DNA of 64,000 nucleotides from Myxococcota bacterium (lineage in GTDB: Bacteria > Myxococcota_A > Polyangia > Polyangiales > Sandaracinaceae), in assembly GCA_036149055.1 (NCBI GenBank), contig JAYZQJ010000204.1, positions 19,174-83,173 of the forward strand. The letters are read 5' to 3'. The position numbers were made by a program, and so were the translations under genes. The notes under the pieces were generated by a model. That model worked only from the letters and a program-made list of their open reading frames with translations. It had not been told where the DNA came from and searched no databases. Shown here one piece after another: positions 26,586-50,100 of the stretch; position 1 is the first letter of the stretch; every line of letters begins with the position of its first letter.

Positions 26586-27623
26586 ATGGACGCGATCGGA
26601 GCGGACGTTCGGGTGGTCGGGGTCGGCGGAGCCGGCGGCAACGCGGTGCGGCACATGGCCGGCCTCGGCATCGAAGGAGCGCGGCTGATCGCCGCCAACA
26701 CGGACGCGCAGGCGCTCGAGGGGCACCCGGCCGCGCAGCACCTGATGCTGGGCCGGCGGTCGACCCGCGGGCTCGGCGCGGGCGGTCGACCCTCGGTCGG
26801 CTTCACCGCGGCGCAGGAGTCGACGGCGGAGATCGTCGACGCGGTGTCCGGCGCCGACCTCGTGTTCATCGCGGCCGGGCTCGGCGGCGGCACGGGGACC
26901 GGCGCCGCCCCGCTCGTGGCCCACATCGCCCGCGAGGAGGGCGCCCTGGTGGTCGGCGTCGTGACCACGCCCTTCACCTTCGAGGGCGGCCGCCGGAACC
27001 GCTTCGCGGACCAGGGGCTCGAGGCCCTGCGCGAGCAGGTCGACTCCTTGATCGTCATCCCGAACGACCGGCTCCTCGAGCTGACCGGCGTCGAGCCGAC
27101 GGTGGCCGAGGCCTTCGCCTGCGCCGACGGCGTGCTCGCCGACGGGGTGCGCGGCATCGGCGACCTCGTGATGGAGCACGGGCTCATCAACCTCGACTTC
27201 GCCGACGTCAGCGCCGTCCTCAGCGACGGCGGCCGCGCGGTGATGGGCATCGGGTACGGCCGGGGCCCGCAGCGCGCGCTCCGCGCCATCGAGGCGGCGT
27301 CGCGCTCGCCGCTCCTGGCCGACGACTCGATCGAGGGCGCGCGCGGGGTGCTGATGAGCTTCCGCGTGGACCCCAAGCTCGGCCTCGGCAAGATCCACGA
27401 GGCGGCGGCGCGGGTGCAGGCGCTCGCCGACGACGACGCGGAGATCCTCTTCGGCGTGACCGTCGACACGATGCTCGAAGACGAGGTGCAGGTGACGCTC
27501 GTCGCCGCCGGCCTCGACGCGCCGCTGGAGCGCGAGGAGCCGGTCGAGGTGCAGCGCTCGGCCGAGATCTACGCGCCCGCGGTGGTCTCGAAGCGCCGCA
27601 ACGCGCTCGTCATGCTGCGCTAG
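26586..27623 (+). CDS. ftsZ: FtsZ/tubulin family GTPase (orphan paralogue, short C-terminus)
   Basis: GVGGAGGNAV, ANTDAQAL, GLGAGG, GLGGGTGTGAAP, PFTFEG, NDRL, T7 loop INLDFADV. Confidence 0.92.
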   Translation: MDAIGADVRVVGVGGAGGNAVRHMAGLGIEGARLIAANTDAQALEGHPAAQHLMLGRRSTRGLGAGGRPSVGFTAAQESTAEIVDAVSGADLVFIAAGLGGGTGTGAAPLVAHIAREEGALVVGVVTTPFTFEGGRRNRFADQGLEALREQVDSLIVIPNDRLLELTGVEPTVAEAFACADGVLADGVRGIGDLVMEHGLINLDFADVSAVLSDGGRAVMGIGYGRGPQRALRAIEAASRSPLLADDSIEGARGVLMSFRVDPKLGLGKIHEAAARVQALADDDAEILFGVTVDTMLEDEVQVTLVAAGLDAPLEREEPVEVQRSAEIYAPAVVSKRRNALVMLR

Positions 27624-30807: not shown

Positions 30808-31392
30808 TCAAGCGTCCCTGTTGCGGTCCGCTTCGTCGAGCGCCTCGCGCAGGGTCTGGGGGCGGTCGGGCGCGGTGACCTTCTTTTTCCAGCGCCGCTC
30901 CCGCCGACGCTTCCTCCACCACAGGCCGAAGAGAGGCCAGGCCTCCTTGCCGTCGAGCGGGCCGAGGGGGATCAGGTTCAGCCCGATGAGGATCGCGTTG
31001 GTGACCGTGAACGCGTAGACGAGGTCGGCGAGGAAGGGCTGCGTGGGCGAGCCCAGCGCGGCCACGACCGCGAGCGTGACCACGAGGATCGGCAGCTGCG
31101 CGAGCACGCCGCCCCAGGCGACCAGCGCGCGCTCGATCGGAGTCGGGGAGCCCGCCCAGCGACACTCCCCGCCCATGCCGTGGAGGCGCACACCCAGGTT
31201 GGCGAGCCCGACCCGGTGCACCACGAAGGCGTGACCGAGCTCGTGAACGATGATCAGCGCGAGGAAGCCGAGCCAGAGGCCGGGGGCGAGGCGGCCGCCG
31301 GTGAAGAAGATCATGCCGATCGGCAGCGACCAGTGCGCGCGTACCGGGACGTCGCGGATCCGGAAGAGCGTGAGGTAGCCGGTCTCGAGCAC
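30808..31392 (-). CDS. Site-2 protease (peptidase M50) family membrane metalloprotease
   Basis: HELGH, VAWGG, NLIPLGPLDG; multiple TM segments; start uncertain (GTG 31392). Confidence 0.88.
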   Translation of the reverse strand: MLETGYLTLFRIRDVPVRAHWSLPIGMIFFTGGRLAPGLWLGFLALIIVHELGHAFVVHRVGLANLGVRLHGMGGECRWAGSPTPIERALVAWGGVLAQLPILVVTLAVVAALGSPTQPFLADLVYAFTVTNAILIGLNLIPLGPLDGKEAWPLFGLWWRKRRRERRWKKKVTAPDRPQTLREALDEADRNRDA

Positions 31393-31466
31393 TCCCCATC
31401 CGTAATCACGAACCATCGAATGCGCATGCGATCGGGTGCGTCGGTGAGGGTATGCTGCCGGCACCG

Positions 31467-32381
31467 ATGCGCGCGCTGACCCTGGCCCTGCTCCTGACCG
31501 CCTGCGGCGGAGACGACGACGACGCCGTGCCCGAGATGGCGACCGGCACCGCCTCGGTGGCGGTGGAGGCGGAGGGCACGGCCGAGGTCGACGCGCCCGC
31601 GGCGCCGCACGGCGGGCGCGTCGTGTCGGTCGGCGCGCACGCGGTGGAGGTGGTGGCCCACGACGACGGGGTCATCGACGCGTTCGTGCTCGGCGACGCG
31701 CCCGAGCCGGCGCAGGTGCAGCTGACGGTGAGCGTCTCGGGGGACGACGGCGAGGTGCACCCGGTGCTCCTGACCTGGCACCCGAGCGAAGGCCGCTACC
31801 AGGGGCGCATGCACCACGCGCAGCCGATCCCGGGGCCGGTCGAGATCGCGATGACGGTGAGCGGAGAGCGCGCCGAGGGGCGTGCCCCGCGCTTGCTGGT
31901 GCTCGCCCCCGAGCCGGCGGCGGCCCCGCCGCGCTCCTCCGCCCGCGCGACGACCGCTCGGGCGCCCAGCTCCCCGTCCAGCTCCTCGTCCAGCGAGGCC
32001 GCGCCCAGCTCCCCGTCGAGCGCGGCGCCCAGCTCCCCGCCCAGCGCGGCCGCGCCCGGCAGCGAGCCGCCGACCGTCGAGGTGCCCGCGCCGTCGGCGC
32101 CGGTGGTCCGCGTCCAGCCCGCTCCCGGCGTGGTCGCGGTGCAGCCGCCGCCCGGAGGCGTGCGGGTGCGGCCCGCCCGGCCCGCCGCTCCACCCGCCGC
32201 GCAGCCGCCCGCCGCGCAGCCGTCCCCCGCGCAGCCGTCCGCCGCGCAGCCGCCAGCCGCGCAGCCGTCCTCCCGCGGCGGCATCCGGGTCCGGAGCCGC
32301 GCGGCGTCGTCCACCGGGCAAGCCGCGTCTCCCGCCTCCCCGTCACGCGGCGGCATCCGCGTCCGGTCCGCCGACGACTGA
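31467..32381 (+). CDS. Lipoprotein with PHGG beta-domain and Pro/Ala/Ser-rich tail
   Basis: Lipobox LLTAC; APHGGRVV...HAVEVV; low-complexity C-terminus. Confidence 0.75.
   Translation: MRALTLALLLTACGGDDDDAVPEMATGTASVAVEAEGTAEVDAPAAPHGGRVVSVGAHAVEVVAHDDGVIDAFVLGDAPEPAQVQLTVSVSGDDGEVHPVLLTWHPSEGRYQGRMHHAQPIPGPVEIAMTVSGERAEGRAPRLLVLAPEPAAAPPRSSARATTARAPSSPSSSSSSEAAPSSPSSAAPSSPPSAAAPGSEPPTVEVPAPSAPVVRVQPAPGVVAVQPPPGGVRVRPARPAAPPAAQPPAAQPSPAQPSAAQPPAAQPSSRGGIRVRSRAASSTGQAASPASPSRGGIRVRSADD
32196..32270 (+). repeat. Five 15-bp tandem repeats encoding (A/P)AQP(P/S)
   Basis: gccgcgcagccgccc / gccgcgcagccgtcc / cccgcgcagccgtcc / gccgcgcagccgcca / gccgcgcagccgtcc. Confidence 0.9.
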
Positions 32382-32441: not shown

Positions 32442-32467
32442 GGAACCTCGCGTCGCGGCGCATGTCA
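32442..32467 (+). promoter_or_regulatory. Possible ECF-sigma promoter upstream of the A2M-like operon
   Basis: GGAACC-N16-GTCA, directly before GTG 32477; pattern match only. Confidence 0.3.
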
Positions 32468-32476
32468 GGCTCGGCC

Positions 32477-35400
32477 GTGACCACGCTCCGATTCGTGTTC
32501 GGGCTGCTCCTCCTCGCCCCCGCGCCCGCGCTCGCCCAGCCGACGGGCTACGAGCTCGCGCTGCAGGGGAGCGACGTCCTGCACGCCGGCCGCACGGCGG
32601 TGTTCCGTGGGGTGGCGTATCGAGTCCACGGCCTGGCCGAGCTGAGGCCGCAGGGCGGCGACGTGGAGGCGCGGCTGCGGTGGTCGGAGGGAGAGCGGCC
32701 GAGCACGTCGTGGGTCACCGCGCGCGCGGACGCGGCCGGTCGCTTCCGGCTGGAGCTGCCGGTCCCGGAGGCGGCGCTCGATCCCTCGCCGGTCCTCGAG
32801 GTGCGGGTCGGCGGGGAGGCGGGGCGGCGCTTCTCGTTCCCCGTCCGCGTCGCGCCGGCGCTCGACGTCTTGCTCCGCACCGATCGTCGCCTCTACGAGC
32901 CGGGCGAGCCGGTGCACGCCTGGGCGCTGGTGCGTGACGCGGCCAGCGGGGCGCCCGCGCGCGACGTGCCGGTGGAGCTCCGCCTCACCGGCGGGGCCTT
33001 GCCGCCCACCATGCACGCGCTCCGGACGTCGGAGGCGGGCGTCGTGCACCTCGAGCTCCGCGTGCCCGAGCGCGCCCCGGAGTCCGGGCAACAAATCGCG
33101 CTTCGGATCGAGGGGCAGCTCCAGCAGCGGGCGACCTTCCGCGTCGGCACCCGCACCTCGGAGCGCCTCTTCGCGACCGTCGAGACCCCGGATGCGGCGG
33201 TCACGCCCGGGGCGTCGACGACGGTGAGCGTCTCGGTCACCACGCCCAGCGGCGCGCCGGTCTCCGGGGCCACCGTGCGCCTGACGATCGAAGACGAGGT
33301 GCTCACGGGAAGCACGGGCGACGACGGCGTGGCGCGCCTCGAGGTCCGCGCGCCGGCTCACTTCGAGCACCGGAGCGGGCACGTCTCGGTGCAGGCGGAG
33401 GTCGAGCATCCGGCGCACGGCGCGGTGACCGCGTGGGGCGCCCTCGGGCTCGCGGTGCCGCTCGCGCTGCGGGTCGAGGTGGTGCCGCGGCACGGCGGCC
33501 TGGTCCCCGAGATCGACGACGCGCTCTACGTGCGCCTGATCGAGGGCACGTCCGGGCCGCCCGCCGAGGGCACCGAGGTGACGGTCCGCGGGCCCGCCAT
33601 CCAGGGCGGCTCGTTCACCGGCGCGAGCGACGCGCACGGCCTGGTCGAGGTCCCCGTCCGGCTGCCCCTCGGCGCCGCGTCCTCGCTCGACGGCGCGCCC
33701 GAGACCACGGTCACCGTCGACGTCGCCGGCCCGCTCGAGCGCACCACCGAGGCGTCGATCCCGGTGCTGCGCGACGTCGAGGTGGCGCCGGTCGTCGGCG
33801 ACGTGGTGATGGACCCCGGCGGCGCCATCGAGGTGAGGCTGCTCCGGCGTCCCGCCTGGCGCCGGGCCGGGGTGCGGGTGGAGCTGCTGGACGGGCAGGC
33901 GCCGCTCGACTGGGTCGTCACCCGCGCCGATCGGGTGCGACTGACCCCGCCGCCGGGCCGACTCGGCGTGTTGCACGTTCGGGCGCGGGTGCTGCACGAG
34001 GACGAGACGCTCGACGGCGTGGGCGCGCTCGCGGCCGTCCTGGTGCGGCCGCCGGATCCGGACGAGGCGCGTCTGTCGAGCGCCCGGCCGCGCTGGACGG
34101 TCGGGGACACGGCGCAGCTCACCTTGCACACCGGCGCCGGCGGTCCGCGGCGCTGGGCGGCGCTCCTGGTCCGCGATCTCGCGGCGCACGGCGGCGAGGA
34201 GCCGTTCCGGGCGAGCTTCCTCGGCGGCGCGTTCGAGCGCGCGGTGCGTGCGCCCACGGGCCCGGCGTCCGAGCGGCTCCTGAGGGCCGCGCTCGCCGCG
34301 CACGCGGTCGCCGATCCGGCGACCCAGCCCGCGCCGCCGCTCACCGACGCGCTCGGGCTGCCGGAGGAGGGCGCGGCCACCGACGCGGCGCGCGAGCGAG
34401 GCACGCTGCGCGATCCGTTCCCGCTCGCCCGCGAGCTCGAGCGGCGCGGCGCCTTCGACGCGATGCGCGCGCTGGAGTCGGCGCTGGAGCAGGCGCTCTC
34501 GGAGGGCGGCCTCGACGCGATCACCACCGGCGCCGGCGCGCGCCGCCGCTTCCGGGACGACCTGCTCGCCGCGCAGACCCGGCTCCGGACCCTGGGCGAC
34601 GAGCCGCTCACCCCGAGCATCCTGGAGGACGCGGTGCCGGGCTTCGACTACGAGGCGGTCGCCAGGCGCGTCGCCCGGGCCCGGCTGGTGCGGTTGATGG
34701 CCGCGCTCGCCCGCTACCTCGACCCGGGGGACGACGCGCCCGTCGCCGCCCGCATGGCGTCGCGAGAGCCGAGCGAGCGGTGGCTCGGGCGCATGGTCGA
34801 GCGCGGCGTGATCGCGCAGACCGACCTCGACGACCCGTGGGGCGGACGCTTCACGCTCCGGGCCTCGCGCGCGCCGCTCCTCGTGCTCGGCGCGGCGGCC
34901 ACCGCGCTCGAGCTCGTCTCGCCCGGCCCGGACGGCCGTCCCGGCACCCGCGACGACGTGCGGGATCCGTTCGCGCGCGTGGTGCCCGCCGCCACCCCGT
35001 ACGCGATCGCGAGCGGGGAAGATGCGTTGATGCGTCAGCTCGCGATGATCTCGCCTCTGGCCCGCACCCTGGAGGCGCTGCGCGAGGCCTACCGGCGGAC
35101 GCTCGCGGAGATGGCCGAGGAGCTGATCGGCGACGCGGTCGCGGGCGGCTACAGCGAGGGCAGCCTGGGGCTCGGGGGGCTCGGTACCGTCGGGCACGGC
35201 CGGGGCGGGGGAGGCAGCGGCTACGGATCGGGCAGCGGCTACGGGCGCATGGGGCGACGAGGTCGCATCCGGGTGGGCTCCGCCGGGCTCGCGGGTGTGG
35301 TGCGGGAGCGCTTCCCGCCGACCCTGCTCTTCCGGCCCGCGCTGGTCGTCGACGCCGACGGCACGACGGAGCTGGCGGTGCCCCTCGCCGACGCGGTCAC

Positions 35401-37144
35401 GACCTATCTGGTCGAGGCGATCGTGTGGCGGGAGGACGGCTGGATCGACTCCGCCGAGCTGCGGGTCGAGGTCGACCGCGACGTGGTCATCGAGGCGCCG
35501 GTGCCGCCGCTCGCGCACCGGGGCGACGTGCTCTCGGTGCCTCTCCGGGTCAGCAACCGGGGCGACGCCCCCCGCGCCCTCGCCATCGGGCTGCTCGGCG
35601 ACGCGGCGCTGGACATCGAGGACGGCGCGCGCACCGAGGTGACGCTGGCGCCCGGGGAGGCGGAGGTGGTGCGGGTGGAGGTGCGGCCCACGCGGATCGG
35701 AGAGGGTCGGCTCACCGCGGTGGCGCTCGACGCGGCGTCCGGGGAGACGCTGGACGCGGTGCGCCGCCCGGTGCAGGTGGTCGCGCCGGCGCGGCGGGTC
35801 GAGCGTGAGCGCACCGGGCTGGCCGCCGGCGACGTCACCCTCGCGCTGGAGGTTCCGGCGGGAGCCGATCCGCGCGACGGCCGCGTGCGGCTGGTGGTGG
35901 GCCCGGCGCTCTTCCCCGCCGATGGCCCGTCCGATCCCTGGGCGGCCTGGGCGCCCCCTCCGGGGTGGACCGGCGCGGCGCGCGCGCGGAGCGGGGGCGC
36001 GGTGGAGCGGGCCTTCGCGCTCGGGGCCCGGGTCCGGCGGGGCCTCGACCACGCCGCCGGGGCGAGCCGCCGGGAGGCCGCCGCGCTCACCCGCGCGCTC
36101 TCCGCGGAGTCCGGGGGACAGACGGAGGGCTCGCCTGCGCAGCTCCGCTTGCGTGCGTGGGCGCTCCTCGGGCTCTCGCCCGCGGCGCGAGACGACGCGC
36201 CGGCCGACGTGCGCGCGATCCTCGACGGGCTGCGGCGCGACGTCGCCTCGGGCGCGATGCTGCGCACCGACGACCCGGCGTCCTGGGTGGTCGCGGCGGC
36301 CGCCCTGGGCTGGAGCGGCGGAGACCGCGAGCGGGTGGCGGAGCTGGTGCGCCGCCTCGAGCGTCACGCGGTCGAGGTCGGCGAGGATCGCTGGCTGGTC
36401 ACCGAAGGCAGCGTGGCCCGCGCGACCCTCCTCTGGGCGATGGCGGAGCTGTCGCTCGACCGCCGGCAGCGCGCCTTCGACCTTCTCTCCACCGTCGCTC
36501 GCTTCGCGGCGTCCGGGCACGCGCTCGACGCGGAGGAGCGCGCGCTCGGGCGCGCGGCGATGGGGCGCCTCTTGGATGGAGCGCCGCCCACCGAGGCCGA
36601 GGTCTGGATCGACGGCGAGCGGCAGACGGTGACCCTCACCGGCGGGGCGGCCGAGGTCGACGCGCCGGCCCTCGCCCGACCGGGCGCGCACGAGGTGCGG
36701 GTGCGGGTGGCCGAGCGGGCGCCGCTCCACGTCGCGGCGAGCGCTCGCTACGGCGTGGCCTGGGAGGCCGCCCCGCGCGGTCCGTTCGGCCTGGAGGTCC
36801 GGGGCGCGACGCACGGCCTCGACGAGACGGCCGAGCTGGAGCTGGTCCTCCGCAACCGGCTCCCGCGCACCGTGCCCGCGGTCGAGGTCCAGGTCGGGCT
36901 GCCCACCGGCGCCGAGCTGACGGAGCGCGAGCGGCAACGGATCGGCGTGCCGGTCGAGCGCGGGGGCGGCGTGCTCACGCTGCATCTGCCCGCCATGAGA
37001 CCCGGACAGACCCGCACCGTCCGGCTCCCGCTCCGCTGGTCGGTGGCCGGACGGCTCGAAGGGCTCGGCGTGGCGGCGTGGGCGGTGGACCGACCGGATG
37101 GCGTGTCGGTGCTCGCGCCGCGTGTGGTGGAGGTGTCCCGATGA
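32477..37144 (+). CDS. Alpha-2-macroglobulin-like (MG2/A2M domain) secreted protein A, no thioester motif
   Basis: Signal peptide ...LLLLAPAPALA|Q; MG2 TDRRLYEPGEPV; RPRWTVGDTA; A2M VRERFPPTLLF...PLADAVTTYLVEA; PPLAHRGDVLSVPLRVSN; C-terminal VGLPTG; no CxEQ. Start 32477 (GTG) or 32462 (ATG). Confidence 0.8.
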   Translation: MTTLRFVFGLLLLAPAPALAQPTGYELALQGSDVLHAGRTAVFRGVAYRVHGLAELRPQGGDVEARLRWSEGERPSTSWVTARADAAGRFRLELPVPEAALDPSPVLEVRVGGEAGRRFSFPVRVAPALDVLLRTDRRLYEPGEPVHAWALVRDAASGAPARDVPVELRLTGGALPPTMHALRTSEAGVVHLELRVPERAPESGQQIALRIEGQLQQRATFRVGTRTSERLFATVETPDAAVTPGASTTVSVSVTTPSGAPVSGATVRLTIEDEVLTGSTGDDGVARLEVRAPAHFEHRSGHVSVQAEVEHPAHGAVTAWGALGLAVPLALRVEVVPRHGGLVPEIDDALYVRLIEGTSGPPAEGTEVTVRGPAIQGGSFTGASDAHGLVEVPVRLPLGAASSLDGAPETTVTVDVAGPLERTTEASIPVLRDVEVAPVVGDVVMDPGGAIEVRLLRRPAWRRAGVRVELLDGQAPLDWVVTRADRVRLTPPPGRLGVLHVRARVLHEDETLDGVGALAAVLVRPPDPDEARLSSARPRWTVGDTAQLTLHTGAGGPRRWAALLVRDLAAHGGEEPFRASFLGGAFERAVRAPTGPASERLLRAALAAHAVADPATQPAPPLTDALGLPEEGAATDAARERGTLRDPFPLARELERRGAFDAMRALESALEQALSEGGLDAITTGAGARRRFRDDLLAAQTRLRTLGDEPLTPSILEDAVPGFDYEAVARRVARARLVRLMAALARYLDPGDDAPVAARMASREPSERWLGRMVERGVIAQTDLDDPWGGRFTLRASRAPLLVLGAAATALELVSPGPDGRPGTRDDVRDPFARVVPAATPYAIASGEDALMRQLAMISPLARTLEALREAYRRTLAEMAEELIGDAVAGGYSEGSLGLGGLGTVGHGRGGGGSGYGSGSGYGRMGRRGRIRVGSAGLAGVVRERFPPTLLFRPALVVDADGTTELAVPLADAVTTYLVEAIVWREDGWIDSAELRVEVDRDVVIEAPVPPLAHRGDVLSVPLRVSNRGDAPRALAIGLLGDAALDIEDGARTEVTLAPGEAEVVRVEVRPTRIGEGRLTAVALDAASGETLDAVRRPVQVVAPARRVERERTGLAAGDVTLALEVPAGADPRDGRVRLVVGPALFPADGPSDPWAAWAPPPGWTGAARARSGGAVERAFALGARVRRGLDHAAGASRREAAALTRALSAESGGQTEGSPAQLRLRAWALLGLSPAARDDAPADVRAILDGLRRDVASGAMLRTDDPASWVVAAAALGWSGGDRERVAELVRRLERHAVEVGEDRWLVTEGSVARATLLWAMAELSLDRRQRAFDLLSTVARFAASGHALDAEERALGRAAMGRLLDGAPPTEAEVWIDGERQTVTLTGGAAEVDAPALARPGAHEVRVRVAERAPLHVAASARYGVAWEAAPRGPFGLEVRGATHGLDETAELELVLRNRLPRTVPAVEVQVGLPTGAELTERERQRIGVPVERGGGVLTLHLPAMRPGQTRTVRLPLRWSVAGRLEGLGVAAWAVDRPDGVSVLAPRVVEVSR

Positions 37145-40100
37145 AGCGCGCGATCGTCAGCCTCCTGCTCCTCTCGGTGACCAGCGCGGCCCACGCGCAG
37201 GAGACCCGGCGCCGCGTGCCGCGCGGCGAGGTGACCGGACTCGAGATGGGGATCGACGGAGCCCTCACCGCCACGCCGGGGGCCGCCCTGGAGTGGTTCG
37301 TCAGCGTCTACGAGGTCGTCCAGCGACGGGATCTCCGCCCGGCCGCGAACGTGACGCTGACGGCGACCGGCTCGCACGCGCCCGGCGCGCCGCTGACGAC
37401 GGTGCGGACCGACGCGTCGGGGCGCGCGCACCTCGTCATCCCCATCCCCGCCGACCTGGAGCACGGCTTCCATCTGCAGGTGAAGGCGGAGAGCCCTCGC
37501 CGGGTAGAGCGCACCTTCGACGTCGACATCGCGCTCGCGCCGCGCTGGCGCGTCGAGGCGCTCGTCGACCGCGAGTCGATCGCGCCCGGCGGCGAGGTGC
37601 TCTTCCTCGGCCGGGTCGTCGGCCGGGCCGACGGGCGCCCCATCGCGGGCGAGGCGGTCACCATCACCGCCTCGCAGGGCGGCGCGCGGACGCGGGCCGA
37701 CGTCGCGGCGCACACGGACGCGGCGGGGGTCTTCTGGGCCAGGGTGCCCGCGCTCGACGCGCCGGGGCCGCTCCGGGTGCAGGCCAGCACCGAGCACGGC
37801 GGGGCGGGCGTCACGGTGACGGTCGCCGCGCCGAGCCGGCACCCGCTCTGGACCGAGGCGACGCCGGACCGACGCGTCTACGCGCCCGGCGATCGCGGCC
37901 GGGTGGCGGTCACGGTGCGCGGGATGGACGGCCGCCCCCTCGAGGGCGCCGAGGTCGACTGGGACGGTCGCGATCCGGAGGCCGAGCCCCTGCGCACCGG
38001 GCCCGGGGGCGAGGCCCGGGTGCCGCTCGACGTGCCCGCGGTGCTCGACGCGCCGTGGGCGGATCGCGCTCTGTCGATCAGCGTGGTCGTCCCGGGCCTC
38101 GGGACCGACCGGCTCGCCGTGCCCTACCGGGTCGCGCGGGTGCCGTGGGTCGCGGACGCGGTGCCCGAAGGCGGGGCGCTCGTCCCCGAGCTCGACGGAG
38201 CGGTGCACGTGCGGGTGGTCCAGTCCGACGGCGTCGCCCTCGCGCAGGCGAGGTTGACGCTCGACGCGCCGCGGCTCGGCGGCGCGCTCCAGGCCACCAC
38301 GGACGACGACGGGGTCGCGCGCTTCACCGGCACGCTCCGCCCGGGCCGCGCGCCCGACGCCTGCGGAGGGCCGACGTTCATCGCCGCCAGCCTTCGTCAC
38401 GACGGTCACGCGCAGTCCTTCTGCCTGCCCGTCGATCCCGACGCGACGCTCACGCTGCGCGGGGACGCCGACGGCGCCTTCGTGATCGCCCGACGGAGCG
38501 AGGTCGCGCGGGTCCCGGTGGAGGTCACCGCGCTCGTCCGCGAGGGCGACGCGTGGCACCCGATCGCCCGCACCCTCGTCGCGCCGGGCGTCTCTCGCGG
38601 CGCGCTCGCGCTCGAGACGATCGGTGAGGTCTGGTTCCGCGCGCGGCCCCTGCTGGAGTCCGGCCGCGCGGTCCGCGGCGGCGGCGACCTGGTGGTCCGC
38701 GCTCCGGACGCGGGCGCGCTCACGCTCTCGGTCGAAGCAGGGAGCGCGCGCGTCGACGGCGGGCCGAGCGCGTTCGTCGTGGCGGTCCCGCCCGCGCGGG
38801 CCAGGGCCGCGCGCGCCGCCCTCCAGGCCTCGCTCTCCCCGCTCGCGGCCGCGCTCGACGAGGGGCGCAGCCCCGGCTTCGTCGCGATGCTCGCCGCCGC
38901 GCGCACGCCGGAGGACGTCTCCGCCACCGCCAGCCTCCGCGAGGGCACGGTGCTGCCGCAGCCGATGCCCGAGGTGCCGGTCGAGCACGGCCTGCTCCGC
39001 GACCCGTGGCGCACGCGGGCCCGCTTCGTGCGCGGCCGGGTGGGGCGCATGCTCCGCGCGGTCGAGGCGTACGTGGACGCGGCGGTGCCCGGTCATCTCG
39101 AGGAGGTCGCGGTGCGAGAGCGCGGCGGCTGGCGCTTCAACCACGCCATCCTCGACGCCGCGCTCCGCCGCACCGGCACCGGGCCGGAGGGCGCGGTCTC
39201 GCTCGACGGCGAGCCCCTCGACGCGGCCGCGCTCACCAGCCTCGACCGAGCCTTCACGTACGACGCGGTCGCCCGGCGGGTCACCCGTGAGCGGCTCTTC
39301 CGCGTGCACCTCTTCCTCCGCGACCTGATCCTCGCCCGGGGGCTCGACCGCGCCTGGGCCCTGCGCGGGGATCCCTCGACCCTGCTCGTCGGCCTGCTCG
39401 AGGCGGAGGACGTGCCCTGGCAGCACGACTGGCCCCAGCGCGAGCACCTCTACGACGCGTGGGGCCACCCGCTCGTCCTGCGCCCGGTCCGGGGCCGCGC
39501 GCGCTTCACCTTCCTGGAGCCGGTGCGCGGCTGGGAGCTCGTCAGCGCCGGGCCCGACGGCCGCGCCGGCACCCGAGACGACATGGTCGACCCGTTCGCG
39601 CGCGTGCTGCCCGACGGGGTCTACGCCGAGGCGGTGGGCGAGGAGACCTTGCTCGCGCGGCTGAACGGGGTGGCGCTCGGGCGCGCGACCGCGGAGGAGC
39701 TCGCCGAGATCTTCGGCGCGTCCGACGGGGGGAGCTGGACCGAGGCGCCCGAGGCGCCCCGCGCGGTCGCGCTGCCTTCGCCGCTCCCCATCACCGAGGC
39801 GCGCGCGCCGTTGCCTCCGGCGCTGCAGGCGATCGGCGGCCCGGCGGACGCGCTCCGCTGGTCTCTCCCGGCCGGCCGGCGCGAGTGGGTCGCGATCGCG
39901 GCCCGCTTCGACCCGAGCGGCGCGGTGCGCACGAGCGAGCGCCGCTTCGAGGCGGGCGCCCCCTGGACCGCGCACCTCGAGCTGCCCGAGAGCCTGCGCC
40001 CCGCCGACACGCTCCGGGTGCCGCTGGTGTTGACCCGCTTCGCCGAGGGCGCGTCCCCCGAGGTCGTCGTGCGGAGCCGGGGCGCGGTGGACGCGCGGCG

Positions 40101-41664
40101 GGACGGGGACTTCGTGGAGCTCGTCGCGCGCCGCGCCGGCTTCGCCGACGTGGAGGTGATCGTCGGCCCGCCCGAGGCCCCGATCGGCCGCTTCTCGCGG
40201 CGCCTCCGGGTCGTGCCCGAGGGGGGGCTGCGCGCGCGCCACGCCGGGGCGATCGTCGACGACGAGGTCACGCTCGTGGCCCCGGTGCCCGACGGAGCCA
40301 CGCCGTGGCGCGGACGGCTCGTGGTGGGCGCGCCGTCGGCGATCGCGTCGGACCCGCGCCTGGCCGGGGCCAGCCCCGCCGCGGCGCTCTGGGGGCGCGC
40401 GATGACCGGGCGCCCAGTAACGGAGGGCGCAGTGACCGAGGGCGCGGTGACCGAGCGCGCAGTGACCGGACGCGCAGGGGACGACGCGCTCGCCCGCCGC
40501 CTGGAGCGAGACGCGGCCGACGGGCTCTCGCGGCCGTTCGAGCGCGCGTGCGCCCTGGCGCTCTGGACCCTCGAGGACTCGAACGAGCCCGCGCGCAGCA
40601 CGCTCGCCGGCGCGCTGCGCTCCGATCCCGGCGCGTCCCTCGCCGAGCGCGCCGCGGTGCTGACCGCCCTCGCCCCGGCGGCTCCGGCCGGTCCGGCGAG
40701 CGGCGCCGACGCGATCGGGCATCTCCTCGCCCGGTTGAAGAGGGACGGCTGGCGCACCCTGGCCGAGGCCACCGACCAGCCCGACGTGATGGCGCGCATG
40801 GCGGCGGCGCTGCTGCTCGTCGACCGCGACGACGTGCCCGGCCGGGCGCTGCTCGAGCGCGTCCAGGGCGCGCTGCGCACCGACGACGCGGGGCGGGCCT
40901 GGGTGCCCGACGCGGAGGGCCGACCGTCCTGGCCCGGCACCCTCGCCGGCGCGATCGCGGCCCGTCAGGCCGGCGACGACGCGCTCGCGGATCGGCTGGT
41001 CCGGGCCGCCGCCACCCGCTTCCACCTCGGCGCTCGAACGGCCGAGGCCGCGTTCTGGGCCATCGCGGCGAGCGTGTACGGCGGCTTCGGCGTCGAGGAG
41101 CCGGAGGAGGTCCGGGTGACCGTCGACGGCGCGGCCCGGACCCTCGCCCTGACCGGCGGGGTGGCCACCCTCGACGTGCGGGCCGGCGCCCGCGTCACCG
41201 TGCGGGCCGCCGCGCCGGTCTGGGCCTGGATCGAGTCGCGCTACCTCGTCCCCTGGGCCGAAGACGCCGACGCGCCGCTCGGGATCGCGATCGAGGGGGT
41301 GGTCGGCGCGCTCGGCGAGCGGGCGGGGCTGGAGCTGCGGCTGGAGGCGCGCGCCGAGGTCGTCGACCCCGTCCTCGAGCTGACCCTCCCCGCCGGCGCC
41401 ACCTTCGACGAGAGCGCGCGGCGAACGCTGGAGGGCGCGCCCGGCGTCACGTCGGTGCGAGGGCCCGACGGCGCGCGGGTGATCCGGCTGCGCCTGACGA
41501 CCTTGCCCGAGGGCGCGGTGCGCCGGCTGCCGCTCGCCTTCCGCTGGACGGCGGCGGGAGAGAGCCGCGGCTTCGACGTCGCCGCGTTCTCCGCCCGCGA
41601 GCCGACCCGGATCTGGCGCAGCCCCGGCCGCGCCGTCCCCGTGCCCGAGGAGACCGAGCGATGA
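37141..41664 (+). CDS. Alpha-2-macroglobulin-like secreted protein B, paralogue of A, no thioester motif
   Basis: ATGA overlap; signal MKRAIVSLLLLSVTSAAHA; VDRESIAPGGEV, PDRRVYAPGD, VPEGGALVP, LELPESLRPADTLRVP, LTLPAG; collinear with the upstream gene. Confidence 0.75.
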   Translation: MKRAIVSLLLLSVTSAAHAQETRRRVPRGEVTGLEMGIDGALTATPGAALEWFVSVYEVVQRRDLRPAANVTLTATGSHAPGAPLTTVRTDASGRAHLVIPIPADLEHGFHLQVKAESPRRVERTFDVDIALAPRWRVEALVDRESIAPGGEVLFLGRVVGRADGRPIAGEAVTITASQGGARTRADVAAHTDAAGVFWARVPALDAPGPLRVQASTEHGGAGVTVTVAAPSRHPLWTEATPDRRVYAPGDRGRVAVTVRGMDGRPLEGAEVDWDGRDPEAEPLRTGPGGEARVPLDVPAVLDAPWADRALSISVVVPGLGTDRLAVPYRVARVPWVADAVPEGGALVPELDGAVHVRVVQSDGVALAQARLTLDAPRLGGALQATTDDDGVARFTGTLRPGRAPDACGGPTFIAASLRHDGHAQSFCLPVDPDATLTLRGDADGAFVIARRSEVARVPVEVTALVREGDAWHPIARTLVAPGVSRGALALETIGEVWFRARPLLESGRAVRGGGDLVVRAPDAGALTLSVEAGSARVDGGPSAFVVAVPPARARAARAALQASLSPLAAALDEGRSPGFVAMLAAARTPEDVSATASLREGTVLPQPMPEVPVEHGLLRDPWRTRARFVRGRVGRMLRAVEAYVDAAVPGHLEEVAVRERGGWRFNHAILDAALRRTGTGPEGAVSLDGEPLDAAALTSLDRAFTYDAVARRVTRERLFRVHLFLRDLILARGLDRAWALRGDPSTLLVGLLEAEDVPWQHDWPQREHLYDAWGHPLVLRPVRGRARFTFLEPVRGWELVSAGPDGRAGTRDDMVDPFARVLPDGVYAEAVGEETLLARLNGVALGRATAEELAEIFGASDGGSWTEAPEAPRAVALPSPLPITEARAPLPPALQAIGGPADALRWSLPAGRREWVAIAARFDPSGAVRTSERRFEAGAPWTAHLELPESLRPADTLRVPLVLTRFAEGASPEVVVRSRGAVDARRDGDFVELVARRAGFADVEVIVGPPEAPIGRFSRRLRVVPEGGLRARHAGAIVDDEVTLVAPVPDGATPWRGRLVVGAPSAIASDPRLAGASPAAALWGRAMTGRPVTEGAVTEGAVTERAVTGRAGDDALARRLERDAADGLSRPFERACALALWTLEDSNEPARSTLAGALRSDPGASLAERAAVLTALAPAAPAGPASGADAIGHLLARLKRDGWRTLAEATDQPDVMARMAAALLLVDRDDVPGRALLERVQGALRTDDAGRAWVPDAEGRPSWPGTLAGAIAARQAGDDALADRLVRAAATRFHLGARTAEAAFWAIAASVYGGFGVEEPEEVRVTVDGAARTLALTGGVATLDVRAGARVTVRAAAPVWAWIESRYLVPWAEDADAPLGIAIEGVVGALGERAGLELRLEARAEVVDPVLELTLPAGATFDESARRTLEGAPGVTSVRGPDGARVIRLRLTTLPEGAVRRLPLAFRWTAAGESRGFDVAAFSAREPTRIWRSPGRAVPVPEETER
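40402..40476 (+). repeat. Five degenerate 15-bp in-frame tandem repeats (VTEGA-like)
   Basis: atgaccgggcgccca / gtaacggagggcgca / gtgaccgagggcgcg / gtgaccgagcgcgca / gtgaccggacgcgca. Confidence 0.85.
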
Positions 41665-41795
41665 GATGGATCTGGATCGCGGCCCTGCTCACCGCCTGCG
41701 GCGCCGCCACGCCGCGGGCCGTCGCCCCCGAGGAGACCACCGCCGAGTGGACCGAGGCCGACGACGCCCCGCTCGAGGAGGACGAGCCTGAGTGA
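41661..41795 (+). CDS. Tiny acidic lipoprotein (44 aa)
   Basis: ATGA overlap, SD GAGGAG; MRWIWIAALLTA|C lipobox; mature part E/D-rich. Confidence 0.65.
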   Translation: MRWIWIAALLTACGAATPRAVAPEETTAEWTEADDAPLEEDEPE

Positions 41796-44551: not shown

Positions 44552-47140
44552 ATGAGCGCGGAGAAGTGGCGTCGCGACAGCCAGGTGGACGGCCCCGATG
44601 CGGCGGCGGAGGGCGCGGCCTTCGCGCCGCTGGCGCCCATCCCCGAGCGCGTGCCGCTGCCCGAGGGCTATCCGGCGCGGCTGCTCGAGGCGTTCGGAGC
44701 GGCGCACGCGCGGGCTGCGCGCCTTCACGAGGCGATGCGCGCCCAGTGGGGGGCGCACTACTCATCGAGCGCGCCCGTCCCGGTCGACGAGGAGGGCGTG
44801 GGGATGCTGGTCGCGTGGCTCGAGAGCGCGGAGACGCGGGTGGCGGCGCCGCACTACGCGAAACACGACGCGACCTTCGTGGCCGAGGCGCTCGGGGTCC
44901 GAGGGCTCGAGCCGGTGCACGTGTGGCGGTGGGCGGTCGCGTTGTCGAGGGGAGCCGACTCACGGTACGTCGGCTGGATGGGCGATCTGCTCGCGGCCAG
45001 CCGCCGCGCGAACGATGGGCGCCCGGATCTGCGCGAGCTGGCGCACGCCGCCGCGCACCACGGGGTCCCCGCCGAGACGATCTCGCGCGCGGAGCTGGAG
45101 AGCGACGACTGGGAAGGGCTCGGCGACTCGCCGGAGCAGGCGTGGACCTTCTTCGCGGAGCACCCCTCGCTGCTCGAGCGGGCGCTCGAGGCGTCGGTCG
45201 GCCCGGATGGGTGGATCGACTACTTTGCCCAGCGCAGCCAGCGCAACGCCTATGCGATCCTCGCCGCGTTCCCGTCCCTGCCCGAGGGCGCCGAGGCGAT
45301 CGCGTGGCGACACGCCCTCGGCAAAGCCAAGACCCCGCGCCCCTGGGCCCGGGCCGCGCTCGGCCACGCGCCGGACCGGGTCGAGCGAGCGGCGGCGGCG
45401 CTCTCCGACGGCCAGGCGGAGATCCGCGCCACCGCGGCGGAGTGGCTCGGCGATGTCGGAGACCCGGCCGCGGTCGCGCCTCTCGAGCGCGCGCTGGCCG
45501 CGGAGCGACGTGAGGCGCCGAAGGCCTCGATGCTGCGCGCGCTCGACGCGCTCGGTGTGGACCTCTCGCCGCACCTCGACCGCGAGGCGCTCCAGCGCGA
45601 GGCGAAGAGGAAGCTGAAGAAGGGCGTGCCCTCCAAGCTCTCCTGGTTCCCGTTCGACGAGATGCCGGCGCCGCGGTGGCGGCAGGACGGCGCGCCGGTC
45701 GCGCGAGAGTCTCTGGTCTGGATGCTGGTCAGCGCGCACGGGGTGAAGCGGGTCGCGCCGTCTCCGCTCCTGCCGCTCTACGCCGCGCAGTGGGAAGGCG
45801 CAGACGCGCTGGGCGACTTCGTGCTCGCCGCGTGGATCGCTCGCGACGTCCAGCCGCGGGCGGCGGGCGGTCGGCCGAAGGGCTCGGCCCAGGCGGACAA
45901 GGGGCTGCTCGCCATCCCGGCGGCGATGGGGGGCGCCGCGGTCGCCTCGCTCGTGGAGGGGTACCTCCGGGACTGGTACGGCTGGCGGGCGCCGCAGTGC
46001 AAGGCGCTGCTCGAGATGCTCGCACACCGGGACGACGACGCCTCGGTGCAGCTCCTGCTGTCGACCGCCGCTCGGTTCCGCACCTCGGGCATTCGAAAGG
46101 AGGCCGAGAGGCGCGTGGAGGAGCTCGCGGCGCGCCGCGGGTGGACGCCCGCCGAGCTCGCCGACCGCACCGCGCCCACCGCCGGCTTCGAGCTGGATCC
46201 CACGATCGGTCGACCCACGCTGGCGCTGGACGTGGGTCCGCGTGTGCTGCGCGCGCTCCTGGACGACTCGCTCGCCGTGGTCCTCGAGGTGGGCGACGGC
46301 AAGGCGATCAAGACCTTCCCGAAGCCGCGGGTCGCCGACGACCCGGAGCGCTTCGCCGAGGCGAAGAAGGCGTTCGCCGCCGCGCGGAAGACGGTGAAGA
46401 AGGTGCTGAGGACGCAGCGTGATCGGCTCTACGACGCGATGTGCGCCGACCAGCGCTGGGACGTGGACACCTGGCGCGTCCATCTCTGGCGGCATCCACT
46501 CGTGGGCCGCCTCTGCGAGCGGCTGGTGTGGGTGGCGCTTCGGGGCGAAGAGGAGGTGGCGACCTTTCGCCCGATCGAGGACGGCACCCTGACCGACGTC
46601 GACGACGAGCCGCTGCGTCTCCCGGAGGGGGTCGAGATCGCGGTGGCCCACCGCACGCGGCTCGGCCCCGAGCGGGCGGCGCGCTGGAGCGCGCACCTCT
46701 CGGACTACGAGGTGAAGGCGCCGTTCTCCCAGCTCTCCGCCGCGCCGGTGGAGCGGCCGGACGACGACGACTCGAACATGCTCGCGCCGGCGTTCGGCCA
46801 CTCGGTCGACGGGCGGCTGCTTCGCATCGCGCTCCGCGAGCACGGCTATCGACGCGGCCCGGTCGAGGAGGGCGGCTGGCTCTACGCCTACGAGCGCCCG
46901 TTCGCGACGCTCGGGCTCACCGCGTTCCTCGGGATCAGCGGTCACTCGATCGACGCGGAGCAGGTCCCGGTCGCGCTGCTCGGGGTCACCTTCCACCGCA
47001 CCCGTGAGGGGGCGCCGAGTCGCGCGCTGCCGCTGCGGGAGCTCCCTCCGGCGCTGCTGGCCGAGGTGAGCGAGCACGTACGGCAGGCGGCGGCCCTCGG
47101 GACCGGCCCGGACCCGCTCTGGGAAGGGCAGGGGCCGTGA
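44552..47140 (+). CDS. DUF4132-domain protein 1 (YehI/MolR-like; short N-terminus)
   Basis: HEAT-like RATAAEWLGDVGD; RGWTPAELADRTAPTAGF; QRDRLYDAMC...W; HPLVGRLCERLVW; WSAHLSDYEVKAPFSQL. Confidence 0.85.
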   Translation: MSAEKWRRDSQVDGPDAAAEGAAFAPLAPIPERVPLPEGYPARLLEAFGAAHARAARLHEAMRAQWGAHYSSSAPVPVDEEGVGMLVAWLESAETRVAAPHYAKHDATFVAEALGVRGLEPVHVWRWAVALSRGADSRYVGWMGDLLAASRRANDGRPDLRELAHAAAHHGVPAETISRAELESDDWEGLGDSPEQAWTFFAEHPSLLERALEASVGPDGWIDYFAQRSQRNAYAILAAFPSLPEGAEAIAWRHALGKAKTPRPWARAALGHAPDRVERAAAALSDGQAEIRATAAEWLGDVGDPAAVAPLERALAAERREAPKASMLRALDALGVDLSPHLDREALQREAKRKLKKGVPSKLSWFPFDEMPAPRWRQDGAPVARESLVWMLVSAHGVKRVAPSPLLPLYAAQWEGADALGDFVLAAWIARDVQPRAAGGRPKGSAQADKGLLAIPAAMGGAAVASLVEGYLRDWYGWRAPQCKALLEMLAHRDDDASVQLLLSTAARFRTSGIRKEAERRVEELAARRGWTPAELADRTAPTAGFELDPTIGRPTLALDVGPRVLRALLDDSLAVVLEVGDGKAIKTFPKPRVADDPERFAEAKKAFAAARKTVKKVLRTQRDRLYDAMCADQRWDVDTWRVHLWRHPLVGRLCERLVWVALRGEEEVATFRPIEDGTLTDVDDEPLRLPEGVEIAVAHRTRLGPERAARWSAHLSDYEVKAPFSQLSAAPVERPDDDDSNMLAPAFGHSVDGRLLRIALREHGYRRGPVEEGGWLYAYERPFATLGLTAFLGISGHSIDAEQVPVALLGVTFHRTREGAPSRALPLRELPPALLAEVSEHVRQAAALGTGPDPLWEGQGP

Positions 47141-50100
47141 GCGCGGACACCTGGCGGAAGCTCGGGATCGAGGTGGAGAACCCCGCCGGCCTCGACGAGG
47201 AGGCGATGGCCTGGCTCGCGAGCTACCTGCTCGCGCTCGACGGAGTGGAGCGAGGGCTCGGAGGCCGCGCGGTCCGGTACGTGATCGACGGCGCGGCGGA
47301 GGAGGTCGTCGGCGCGGTGCGCGGGCGCACCGACTGCGCCGAGCGCTTGAGCCTCTCCGGCTGGCGGGCGCCGGTGGAGCGCGACGCGTTCTTCCGGCGC
47401 GCGCGCGGCGCGGTCGGCCCTCTGCACCGGCTCGCGGTGCTCCTCGACGCGGCCGCGGGCCCCAGGCCGCACCTCTCGGCGCCCGGCGTGCCGTCGTGGT
47501 TCTGGTGGCTGCGCGCGGGGCATGGCGTCTCCGCCGCTCGGCTCGACGCGGCGACGCTGGCGGGCGCGCTCGAGCTCGGCGGCGCGGATCCGTCGGTGCT
47601 CATCACGGTCGAGCTTCCGCGGCCTCACCTCTACGACGCGAAGCCGGATGGGTTGGGGGAGTGGCTGCGCGGGCAGAGCCCGGCGCTGGCTCGCCGGCTC
47701 GACGAGGCCCCGACGGCGTCGGAGCGCGCGGAGATCCTCGACCTCCTGAGGTCCGAGGAGGTGGCGTCGCCGGAGCTGCTCCCTCAGCTCGCGCGGGAGG
47801 CCACCTCGAGCGCCAAGCGAAACCGGGAGCAGGGGCTCCGCCTCCTCGGCGCGCTGGGCGAGGTGGCGCGGCCCGCGCTCGAGCGGGTCGCCGAGGAGGG
47901 CAGCGCGGCGACGCGCCGGGAGGCCTACCGCGCGCTCGACCTCCTCTTCGGCGCGGACGCGAGATCGTTCCTCGAGGCGCGCCGAGCGTCGGAGCCCAAC
48001 GCCAAGGCCCGGCAGCTCCTCGACGGGCTCTGCGCCAAGGCGGCCCCCGCGGCGGTCACCTTCACGCTCCCCGAGCTGCCGCCCATCCCCGACCGCGTGC
48101 CCTTGCCGGAGGGGTACGAGGCGCACCTGTCGGAGGTTCTCGTCGCCGCGCACGAGCGCCGGCGTCGGGAGCACGAGCGCTGGGCGAAGCGCGGCGTGCG
48201 CGGATGGGGAGCTCTGCCTCCCGCGCCCTCCGAGGCGCAGCTGGAGGCGCTCGCGCGGCGGCTCGAGGTCGGCGGTCCGCCTCCGCCCGAGACCAAGGCC
48301 CAGCTCCTCGTCCGGGACTCCCGGATGCTTCACGACGTCGGGCGCTTCCCCGGCCTGCATCCCGTGCACGTCTGGCGTCTCATGGGGGCCATCCTCGGTG
48401 AGCCGCTCGCCTGGCAAGCCTCGCAGATCTCGAACGGCGCGCGTCGGGCGAACGGCGGCCGGCCCGATCTCCGCGAGCTGGCGCACGCGGCCAGCCACGA
48501 CGGCAGCGACCTCGCCGAGCTCACGCACACCGCCCTCGAACGGAACCTGCTCGGCTTCGCCCCCGAGGACGCCTGGACGCTGTTCGCCGAGCACCCGGAG
48601 TGGCTGGAGGAGGCTCTGGTCGGGCGACTGGGCGTCGCCTCCTACGCCGCGGAGCGCGCCCGGTTCGCCGCGCTCGACGTCCTGGCCGCCTTCCCCCAGC
48701 TCCCGGGCGGCGCGGCGGAGCTGGCCTGGCGCCACGCCTTCGACACGGCGAAGGGGCTCCGCCTCCGGGCGCGCGCCGCGCTCGCGAAGGCCGACGACCC
48801 GGTGGAGCGGGTCGCGCGCGCGCTCGGCGACGGCAAGCAGGACGTTCGCACGATCGCCGCCGAGTGGCTGGCCGAGCTCGGGGACCCGGCGGCGATCGAG
48901 CCGCTGGAGCGGGCGGTGGCGAAGGAGAAGCGAGAGGTGCCGAGGGGAGCGATGTTCCGCGCGCTGCACGCGCTCGGCGTCGACCTCGCGCCTCACCTCG
49001 ACCGGGAAGGTCTGGAGCGCGAGGCGAGAGCGAAGCTGAAGAAGGGCGCGCCCGCGAAGCTCTCCTGGATCCCCTGGGCGTCCTTGCCGCGGCCGCGCTG
49101 GCGGAGCGACGGCGCGCCGGTGTCGCTCGTGTCGCTGCAGTGGCTGCTCGTCGCCGCCCACGCCCTGAAGAGCCCGGTCCCCACGCCGCTGCTCGCGCTC
49201 TACGCGGAGCGCTGGGACGACGCGGAGCCGCTCGGCGACGCCCTGCTCGATCTCTGGATCGCGCGAGACGCGCGCCTCCCGAGCCGCGCGGAGGCGGAGG
49301 CGAAGGTGAGCGCGAAGCTCGCGCAGTGGCACTACGTGCCTCCGCCCGAGCATCGAGAGGCGATGATCCGGGAGGCGCTCGCGCGGCCACTCGGCTCGGC
49401 GCAGGCGGATCGAGGCGTGCTCGCCTTCACGACCGCGGTCGGCGGCCCGAGCGTCGCCTCGAAGATCGAGCGCTACCTGAAGGACTGGCACGGCCTCCGC
49501 GCGCCCCAATGCAAGATGCTCCTCGAGCTGCTCGCGCACCGGCCGGACGAGGCGTCGACTCAGGTGCTGCTCGCGACGGCGACGCGCTTCCGCACTCGAG
49601 GCATTCGCGACGAAGCGGAGCGGCAGGTCGCCGAGGTCGCCGAGCGCCGGGGCTGGACGCGGGCCGAGCTCGAGGATCGCACCGTGCCGACGGCGGGCTT
49701 CGAGCCCGACCCGAGCGGCCGTCCGGTCCTGCGTCTGGACCTCGGCGCTCGCGCGCTCCACGCGGTCCTCGACGACGGGCTCGCGGTCGTGCTCGAGAGG
49801 GGCGACGGCAAGACGACCAAGACGTTCCCGAAGCCGCGCAAGGACGACGACCCCGATCGCGCGGCGGAGGCGAAGAAGACCTTCTCGGCCGCCAAGAAGC
49901 AGGTGAAGCAGATCGTCCGCCTGCAGACCGCGCGGCTGTACGAGGCGATGTGCCTCGAGCAGGGGTGGTCGGCGGCGAGCTGGCGGGAGCATCTCCTGTC
50001 GCATCCCATCGTCGGCCGGCTGTGTGAGCGCCTGGTCTGGACGGCGCTCGCCGACGGCGCCGAGCCCGTCACCTTTCGGCCCCTCGGTGACGGCACGCTC

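Follow-up and report, generated by a model that had tools for sequence, protein, structure and literature searches.

A coupled pair of thioester-less macroglobulin paralogues with a micro-lipoprotein, a likely third type of bacterial macroglobulin operon in Polyangiales

Bacterial alpha-2-macroglobulins (A2Ms) have been described as two types. Type I, represented by E. coli YfhM (ECAM) and the Salmonella A2M, carries a thioester and is encoded beside pbpC. Type II, represented by P. aeruginosa MagD and E. coli YfaS, has A2M architecture and a bait, lacks the CxEQ thioester motif and is encoded with partner genes in the six-gene mag/yfa operon. MagD traps a protease non-covalently, without a thioester and in dependence on its operon partners, and MagB keeps it at the membrane (PMC5764988). 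Here we describe a three-gene unit, A-B-C, in 64,000 nt of contig JAYZQJ010000204.1 of the Myxococcota assembly GCA_036149055.1 (genome G000), a stretch referred to below as the window. By sequence, the unit belongs to the A2M superfamily. It has neither the thioester and pbpC neighbor of Type I nor the mag/yfa operon of Type II, and it is likely an undescribed bacterial macroglobulin variant with a third type of operon. The initial annotation of the window had proposed a new envelope system; what stands is an undescribed paired macroglobulin variant, and what does not is categorical novelty, the unit being a member of a known superfamily.

With Type I, sequence alignment suggests the same order of macroglobulin (MG) domains, split MG6 and, more tentatively, CUB-TED-CUB, TED being the thioester domain; the differences are that A and B lack CxEQ, the large proteins have no lipobox and no pbpC lies nearby. 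With Type II, the unit shares A2M architecture, the absence of CxEQ, partner genes and, in A, a retained bait. It differs in having two full-size paralogues versus one in MagD/YfaS, three genes versus six, with no small partner other than a 44-aa lipoprotein, and, in both A and B, a 250-aa GspG-like insert together with a shortened thioester domain. The nearest outgroup consists of TEP-type thioester macroglobulins (L085, L144, L146 and P0074), which have the same short architecture and, in L085, L144 and L146, also a Gly-rich bait together with a weak form of the insert. Unlike A and B, these relatives are single genes with an intact GCFEQ and a full TED of ~300 aa; they are known as database entries, and no paper on macroglobulins of this type was found in the literature. 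Among TED-bearing Atlas clusters, those combining MG2, A2M and TED_complement are nearest to B (score 0.92-0.94). The label "complement-like" first given to the locus was thus too strong: in contrast to complement C3 and TEP, A and B have no thioester for covalent opsonization, and their closest thioester relatives are bacterial TEP-type macroglobulins. Full-text searches for macroglobulins with Sandaracinus, pseudopilin, Myxococcus and myxobacteria returned nothing on the A-B-C system, as judged partly from listings, and subscription papers or supplements could mention it. None of A, B and C is covered by an NCBIfam model, and members of the A/B family are labeled in databases only as MG2-domain, A2M-family or hypothetical proteins. 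The CAGE complex, considered as a counterpart, was rejected because its fold is different (PMC12485934).

Gene A (32477..37144, forward strand) encodes a protein of 1555 aa, predicted to be exported and to have an A2M-type fold, free of Cys and of a thioester, starting at GTG 32477. The annotated frame begins at ATG 32462 (32462-37144, forward strand, 1560 aa), and residue numbers of A count from that ATG throughout; because this ATG falls within the -10 element of a conserved promoter, GTG 32477 is the likely start. The ESM Atlas entry for the A sequence begins at residue 6, and the Atlas offers no structural model. Gene B (37141..41664, forward strand) encodes a paralogue of 1507 aa, likewise predicted to be exported and of A2M-type fold, with no thioester, no Gly-rich bait and a degenerate MG6b, and gene C (41661..41795, forward strand) a predicted lipoprotein of 44 aa with the lipobox LTA-C13 and Gly at +2. 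By their coordinates, A and B overlap by 4 nt, as do B and C, and ATGA is seen directly at the B/C junction, in agreement with the ATGA-type coupling noted at the outset. Judged by eye, the N termini of A and B both resemble Sec signal peptides, that of A ending in ALA-Q.

Pfam and profile-profile alignment confirm that A and B are two collinear A2M-type paralogues of ~1500 aa. Above cut-off, A matches MG2, MG4 and A2M (residues 954-1036, E 1e-7); B matches MG4, with MG2 (E 4e-4) and A2M (E 0.3) below cut-off. The two family profiles are collinear across 1472 columns (hhalign, probability 100%), and both match solved A2M, C3 and TEP1 chains. The best PDB match of the A profile is the Salmonella A2M 4u48 (E 4e-18); since the alignment begins only near residue 325 of that chain, A appears to lack the N-terminal bacterial MG domains. 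The best match of the B profile is mosquito TEP1 (E 1e-14). B has three Cys, among them a conserved pair, C408/C428 (38362-38424). Neither A nor B matches the Pfam bacterial MG5, MG6 or MG10 families, though the pbpC-linked gene of G000 does. That gene (L197:3986-12006, contig C97) encodes a classical bacterial macroglobulin (bMG3, bMG5, bMG6, bMG10) directly before a PBP1C-type gene, with SPWGDTES at the site and no CxEQ; it is a Type I gene context without a thioester, separate from the A-B pair.

The thioester motif is missing from all family members compared. CxEQ occurs in 0 of 142 A, B and single-gene sequences, each trimmed to its profile match, and the helical region at the thioester position is short, both as first reported. 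In A, the remnant spans 35903..36595 (forward strand, residues 1148-1378), giving 231 aa between the CUB halves against an A-family median of 257 (n=71); in B, a degenerate region at 40330..41109 (forward strand, residues 1064-1323) measures 260 aa against a B-family median of 262 (n=59). The same region has ~296-305 aa in four GCFEQ relatives, counted by hand from alignment anchors. In A, the CUB-TED-CUB region can still be aligned with the GCFEQ relatives (95% probability, E 3e-8), other residues occupying the thioester site. The B alignment (1.6% probability, E 0.03) falls below significance, so that homology of B at this position rests on collinearity with A. TED_complement has no match anywhere in genome G000. 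In both proteins this region is among the least conserved parts, with values of 0.30-0.47 per 50 residues at its start. Within it, the B of the window has a VTEGA-like repeat of about four units (40417-40473, forward strand) that is not in the other B sequences displayed.

What the initial description of the locus did not contain is an insert of ~250 aa in both A (34379..35131, forward strand, residues 640-890) and B (38968..39720, forward strand, residues 610-860), with the same GspG-like head in each. In both proteins it follows the first half of the bait-region domain and precedes the bait. It has no counterpart in the solved A2M chains matched, and its position presumably corresponds to that of the linker and anaphylatoxin segments of C3 and to the site at which human A2M subunits touch. 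The insert is the best BLAST segment between A and B (33% identity, E 1e-18) and the conservation peak of both proteins in both clades of the family, reaching 0.78-0.81 per 50 residues. Approximately residues 739-833 of A resemble a GspG pseudopilin head (DPWG ... SPGPDGxxGTxDD). Pfam T2SSG is reached by A alone at E 0.22, and the insert profile matches PDB 3g20 weakly (E 0.0046, residues 20-113 of 123); its top PDB matches are four GspG chains, of which the three beyond 3g20 have E 0.4-0.8. The DPWG and GPDG..DD residues are invariant or nearly so among 49 inserts. This is a weak but coherent match, by which the C-terminal ~95 aa of the insert may form a GspG-type head: they align over most of the head (PF08334; PDB 3g20), including DPWG and GPDGxxxTxDD. 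The difference from GspG is that the insert is internal to a 1500-aa macroglobulin and has no prepilin cleavage site or N-terminal membrane helix. In GspG, the GPDG..DD loop has a calcium-binding role. The ESM Atlas gave no usable match to the A insert, and a word search with the L085 insert gave no match. Two small open reading frames (ORFs) of G000, L198:2502-3098 (C170) and L199:2778-3290 (C245), also carry the GxDGxxGTxDD of the insert, with no Pfam match at E 0.01.

The insert profile serves as a marker for the family. It is positive in 70 of 251 Polyangiales genomes, including 24 of 26 in the family to which the window belongs; a phylum-wide set of 301 genomes gave only 2 matches outside Polyangiales, both weak. 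(The best 150 of 678 representative matches were viewed, and the weak tail may include plain GspG.) Named records come from Sandaracinaceae, Polyangiaceae, Labilithrix and other Polyangiales, and pair-type B proteins (P0135, P0137) are on record for the cultured Sandaracinus amylolyticus. Of the 58 positive genomes outside family f18, 53 carry the insert in two, four or six copies, while in f18 the 12 positive genomes of 77 have one copy each. B lies directly behind A in 66 of 69 testable loci, 64 intact and 2 frameshifted, three A loci that end at a contig edge being excluded. Whether the pair would always be adjacent across Myxococcota had been posed as a check; adjacency is indeed the rule, but the pair is almost confined to Polyangiales, and 12 of the 70 positive genomes have a single gene. 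Pairs with conserved adjacency predominate over single genes. Frameshifted A or B copies in L028, L031, L035, L050 and L115 are probably assembly errors.

In a tree of 146 rows, the 72 A sequences, the 62 B sequences and the 8 single genes separate into three groups, every one at support 100, and the clades within A match those within B. A smaller IQ-TREE run groups A with B at 93 SH-aLRT, a value below the star threshold of the tool, with the single genes outside. Across 58 pairs, 38 of 44 strong splits in the A tree recur in the B tree and one conflicts. G000 itself has a second A-B pair, of clade 2 (L021:4481-14369, C205), with no C, an acidic bait and a Pro/Glu C-tail on A; A-then-B order and coupling were kept through this second duplication, that of the whole pair. 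Outside Polyangiales, in other lineages of Myxococcota, the thioester-bearing single genes L085, L144 and L146 have GCFEQ, a full TED and a weak insert. Taken together, the sequences suggest a succession from a thioester form to a thioester-less single gene, then a tandem pair, then duplication of the pair. The thioester-bearing genes (L085:5436-8582, L144:6830-12097, L146:7272-12548) are rare, with matches in 4 of 81 genomes, one of them not clearly an A2M. A clade-2 B of 1689 aa (L041:10176-15245) has ~100 extra C-terminal residues that resemble an added beta domain.

A and B differ most clearly at the bait. A has a Gly-rich motif at the bait position (35168..35239, forward strand, residues 903-926) followed by VRERFPPT (947-954), and neither has a counterpart in B, where the segment is Pro-rich and lacks the RxxFPxT entry. 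In both clades, B is without the bait and the canonical entry to MG6b, and A keeps a low-complexity segment at the bait position in every clade. The Gly-rich motif itself is present in 17 of 21 clade-1 A baits, 7 of 9 intermediate ones and 5 of 42 in clade 2, where the baits are longer, more acidic and variable. Its presence in the single genes and thioester forms shown makes the Gly-rich bait look ancestral. The motif also occurs in three other real-looking ORFs of G000, namely a GltG-like gene on C142 and two VIT-type proteins, and similar Gly-rich stretches precede 7 of 25 AgmX/PglI tails in that genome. The claim that a Gly-rich bait and VRxxFPxT are peculiar to A therefore holds within the pair; as a motif, the Gly-rich segment is nothing special, being common to GltG-type and VIT proteins of G000.

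Gene C, although tiny, is genuine, as had been supposed. Its profile matched 37 of 251 genomes. Among the 30 best loci, 24 have the conserved motif W30-T-x-x-D34-D35 (41748-41765, forward strand, in C of the window), and each of the 24 has a B gene immediately upstream; the six weaker loci (L187, L189-L193) have the lipobox only, lack a B and are excluded from the 24. Such conservation, always behind B, is that of a real gene and not of a chance ORF. C13, G14, W30, T31 and D34 are invariant in two 11-sequence alignments. C is confined to clade-1 pairs. In 39 clade-2 A proteins from loci without C, a Pro/Glu-rich C-tail is found instead, with a median of 67 versus 32.5 residues from the same anchor (39 versus 18 sequences). 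A tentative likeness of this tail to the motif of C (SDD-P, for example) carries no weight here. A Lys at +2 is the mark of inner-membrane lipoproteins in M. xanthus (PMC3222651); with Gly rather than Lys at +2, C may go to the outer membrane. Clade-specific conserved basic residues indicate no single C-binding site.

Upstream of A lies a predicted extracytoplasmic function (ECF) sigma factor promoter (32442..32466, forward strand), with a -35 element GGAACC (32442-32447), a 15-nt spacer and a -10 element TGTC (32463-32466). GTG 32477 is 35 bases after the first G, and the A transcript is likely leaderless, with a predicted start at about 32477. We defined the motif as GGAACY-N15-T/G/C-GTC with an in-frame start +33 to +36 from the first G. 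Among A genes, motif and start together precede 17 of 20 in clade 1 and 4 of 5 intermediate ones; they also precede 8 of 8 single genes, and none of 62 B genes has them. The motif was not found at the second pair of G000 (C205). Genome-wide in G000, a good start stands at the right distance from 13 of 31 strict sites versus 4 of 63 sites with other spacers (the spacer-12 control alone has 30 sites, one with a matching start). Strict motifs outnumber the reversed control in G004 (25 versus 11) and G275 (32 versus 16). A sigma-70 scan gave no promoter.

The motif also precedes an ECF sigma factor gene of G000 and its candidate anti-sigma factor, a small protein with one transmembrane segment (L207:5395-6473, C248). 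Orthologues of this sigma factor keep the motif in 4 of 5 genomes, and we infer from its own promoter that it is the acting one. Other G000 genes behind sites are cglF-gltG, three more AgmX/PglI-tail genes, two ExbD genes and genes for a vWA protein, an M28 peptidase, a trypsin-like protein and DnaJ; a VIT-vWA-AgmX-tail gene has a near-strict site. In G004, 10 of 25 sites lie before homologues of G000 targets; the figures are 8 of 30 read (of 32) for G275 and 3 of 10 for G265. The targets common to these three genomes and G000 are cglF-gltG and one GltG-like gene; the ECF gene itself is a target in three of the four, as is the macroglobulin gene (in G000, G004 and G265). ECF control of A, guessed at from the start, is thus a prediction well supported by promoter conservation and the predicted regulon. 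In two metatranscriptome runs from a single seawater study (shares 0.22 and 0.07), cover of the contig was low and even, also outside the operon; this may be DNA and is uninformative on operon expression. The predicted C248 regulon of leaderless envelope genes (cglF-gltG, GltG-like, ExbD, vWA/VIT, M28, trypsin-like) merits a study of its own.

How might such a unit work? With somewhat less than even confidence, we favor an ECF-induced A-B hetero-oligomer, tethered by C, that would serve in the cell envelope as a non-covalent, bait-triggered protease trap or decoy, in which A would carry the bait and the inserts would form the joint. The ancestral single gene would have made a homo-oligomer via the insert, which duplication would have turned into a hetero-oligomer, A keeping the flexible bait and B becoming the structural partner. 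C would dock through WTxxDD and supply the lipid anchor that A and B lack, a role that would parallel the lipobox of YfhM and the service of MagB to MagD. Cleavage of the A bait would then close a cage around the protease without a covalent bond, by analogy with MagD, and the ECF sigma factor would induce A-B-C together with envelope genes of the Glt/TonB-ExbBD type. Binding of A to B, tethering by C and protease trapping are each predictions from sequence.

Several observations weigh against this trap. The clade-1 bait is a conserved Gly-rich motif rather than a variable segment, and this fits a docking role equally. With a shortened TED, and no significant TED match in B, the conformational switch may have been lost. 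Single-gene forms occur in 12 of the 70 positive genomes, three A genes (L038, L046, L158) have no downstream B, and five intermediate-clade pairs have neither a clear C nor a tail. Conserved gene order and matching trees are what any linked genes passed on vertically should show. As for regulation, the motif precedes only 7 of 40 clade-2 A genes, 3 with a matching start; the strict motif in G265 does not exceed its reversed control (10 versus 29); and promoters of the GGAAC..GTC type are used by several ECF groups.

The strongest competitor, unlikely but to be taken seriously, is that A-B(-C) inhibits nothing and serves a Glt/TonB-ExbBD-type envelope machine as a structural or docking accessory. 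The A2M fold would then be only a scaffold, with the Gly-rich motif and the pseudopilin-like head mediating assembly with GltG-type proteins. It would account for cglF-gltG and the GltG-like gene being the most conserved promoter co-targets, for a bait motif common to GltG-type linkers and VIT-vWA proteins, and for a conservation peak in the insert and not in the trap machinery; moreover, Glt-like core complexes have several non-motility roles (PMC3169522). However, no glt, exb or tonB gene is among the conserved neighbors of the pair in 41 clustered loci, most clade-2 pairs lack both motif and promoter, and the promoter lies directly before only 5 of 25 AgmX/PglI-tail genes, plus one via an operon. 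A doubtful but more far-reaching conjecture would join elements of trap and accessory. The lineage would have swapped covalent chemistry for an asymmetric two-gene cage around a captured pseudopilin head, with a 30-residue lipopeptide as membrane clip and a bait that copies the Gly-rich periplasmic linker of GltG/TonB-type energizers under the same ECF; the product would be a decoy or sensor that guards Glt-type machines or helps to assemble them. If true, it would link the complement/A2M fold to the gliding-type motors of myxobacteria.

Two further alternatives are improbable. The pair could leave the cell across the outer membrane and act on the surface or in the matrix as an adhesin or an opsonin-like coat, in prey contact or biofilm, with C as the surface anchor. 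These are large, Ig-like, multi-domain proteins with apparent signal peptides, and C, with no +2 Lys, may go outward by the M. xanthus rule (PMC3222651); yet no dedicated export genes lie nearby, there is little sequence hypervariability outside the bait, and the sorting rules come from M. xanthus rather than Polyangiales. Least probable, by a shade, is that A and B are co-transcribed paralogues acting separately as monomers or homo-oligomers, adjacent through tandem duplication under shared regulation: the single-gene genomes and the A genes without B would suit this, but A-B order and coupling survived the second duplication, and dependence on A is suggested by the fact that B, in either clade, has lost both the bait and the canonical entry to MG6b.

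A Pfam scan of 13 neighbors in the window found no penicillin-binding protein and no mag/yfa family, in keeping with the initial observation that neither context is present; it identified an M50 peptidase, an ABC ATPase, an FtsZ-like protein, a DUF4328 protein, a disulfide reductase and two DUF4132 proteins. Neighbors in other genomes were compared by clustering, and none is broadly conserved, no cluster covering more than 8 of 41 clustered loci. Upstream of A are genes for an M50 site-2-type peptidase (30808-31464, reverse strand) and a Pro/Ala-rich predicted lipoprotein (31452-32381, forward strand), each with homologues in 6 of 41 clustered loci; the promoter lies downstream of both, which places them outside the A-B-C operon. 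The FtsZ-family gene (26586-27623, forward strand, 345 aa) is away from any cell-division cluster and adjoins the operon in 5 loci. The DUF4132 genes, with HEAT repeats, are themselves coupled tandem paralogues (44552-47140 and 47137-50667, forward strand; 862 and 1176 aa).

To the two described types of bacterial A2M, A-B-C would add a third, clade-wide arrangement, whose history can be read from the thioester form through the thioester-less single gene and the duplicated pair to the pair with a micro-lipoprotein. Two processes can be followed cleanly in it: what becomes of an A2M once the thioester is lost, and how one gene turns into an asymmetric pair. The predicted ECF regulon, in turn, links the pair to Glt/TonB-ExbBD genes and their non-motility roles.

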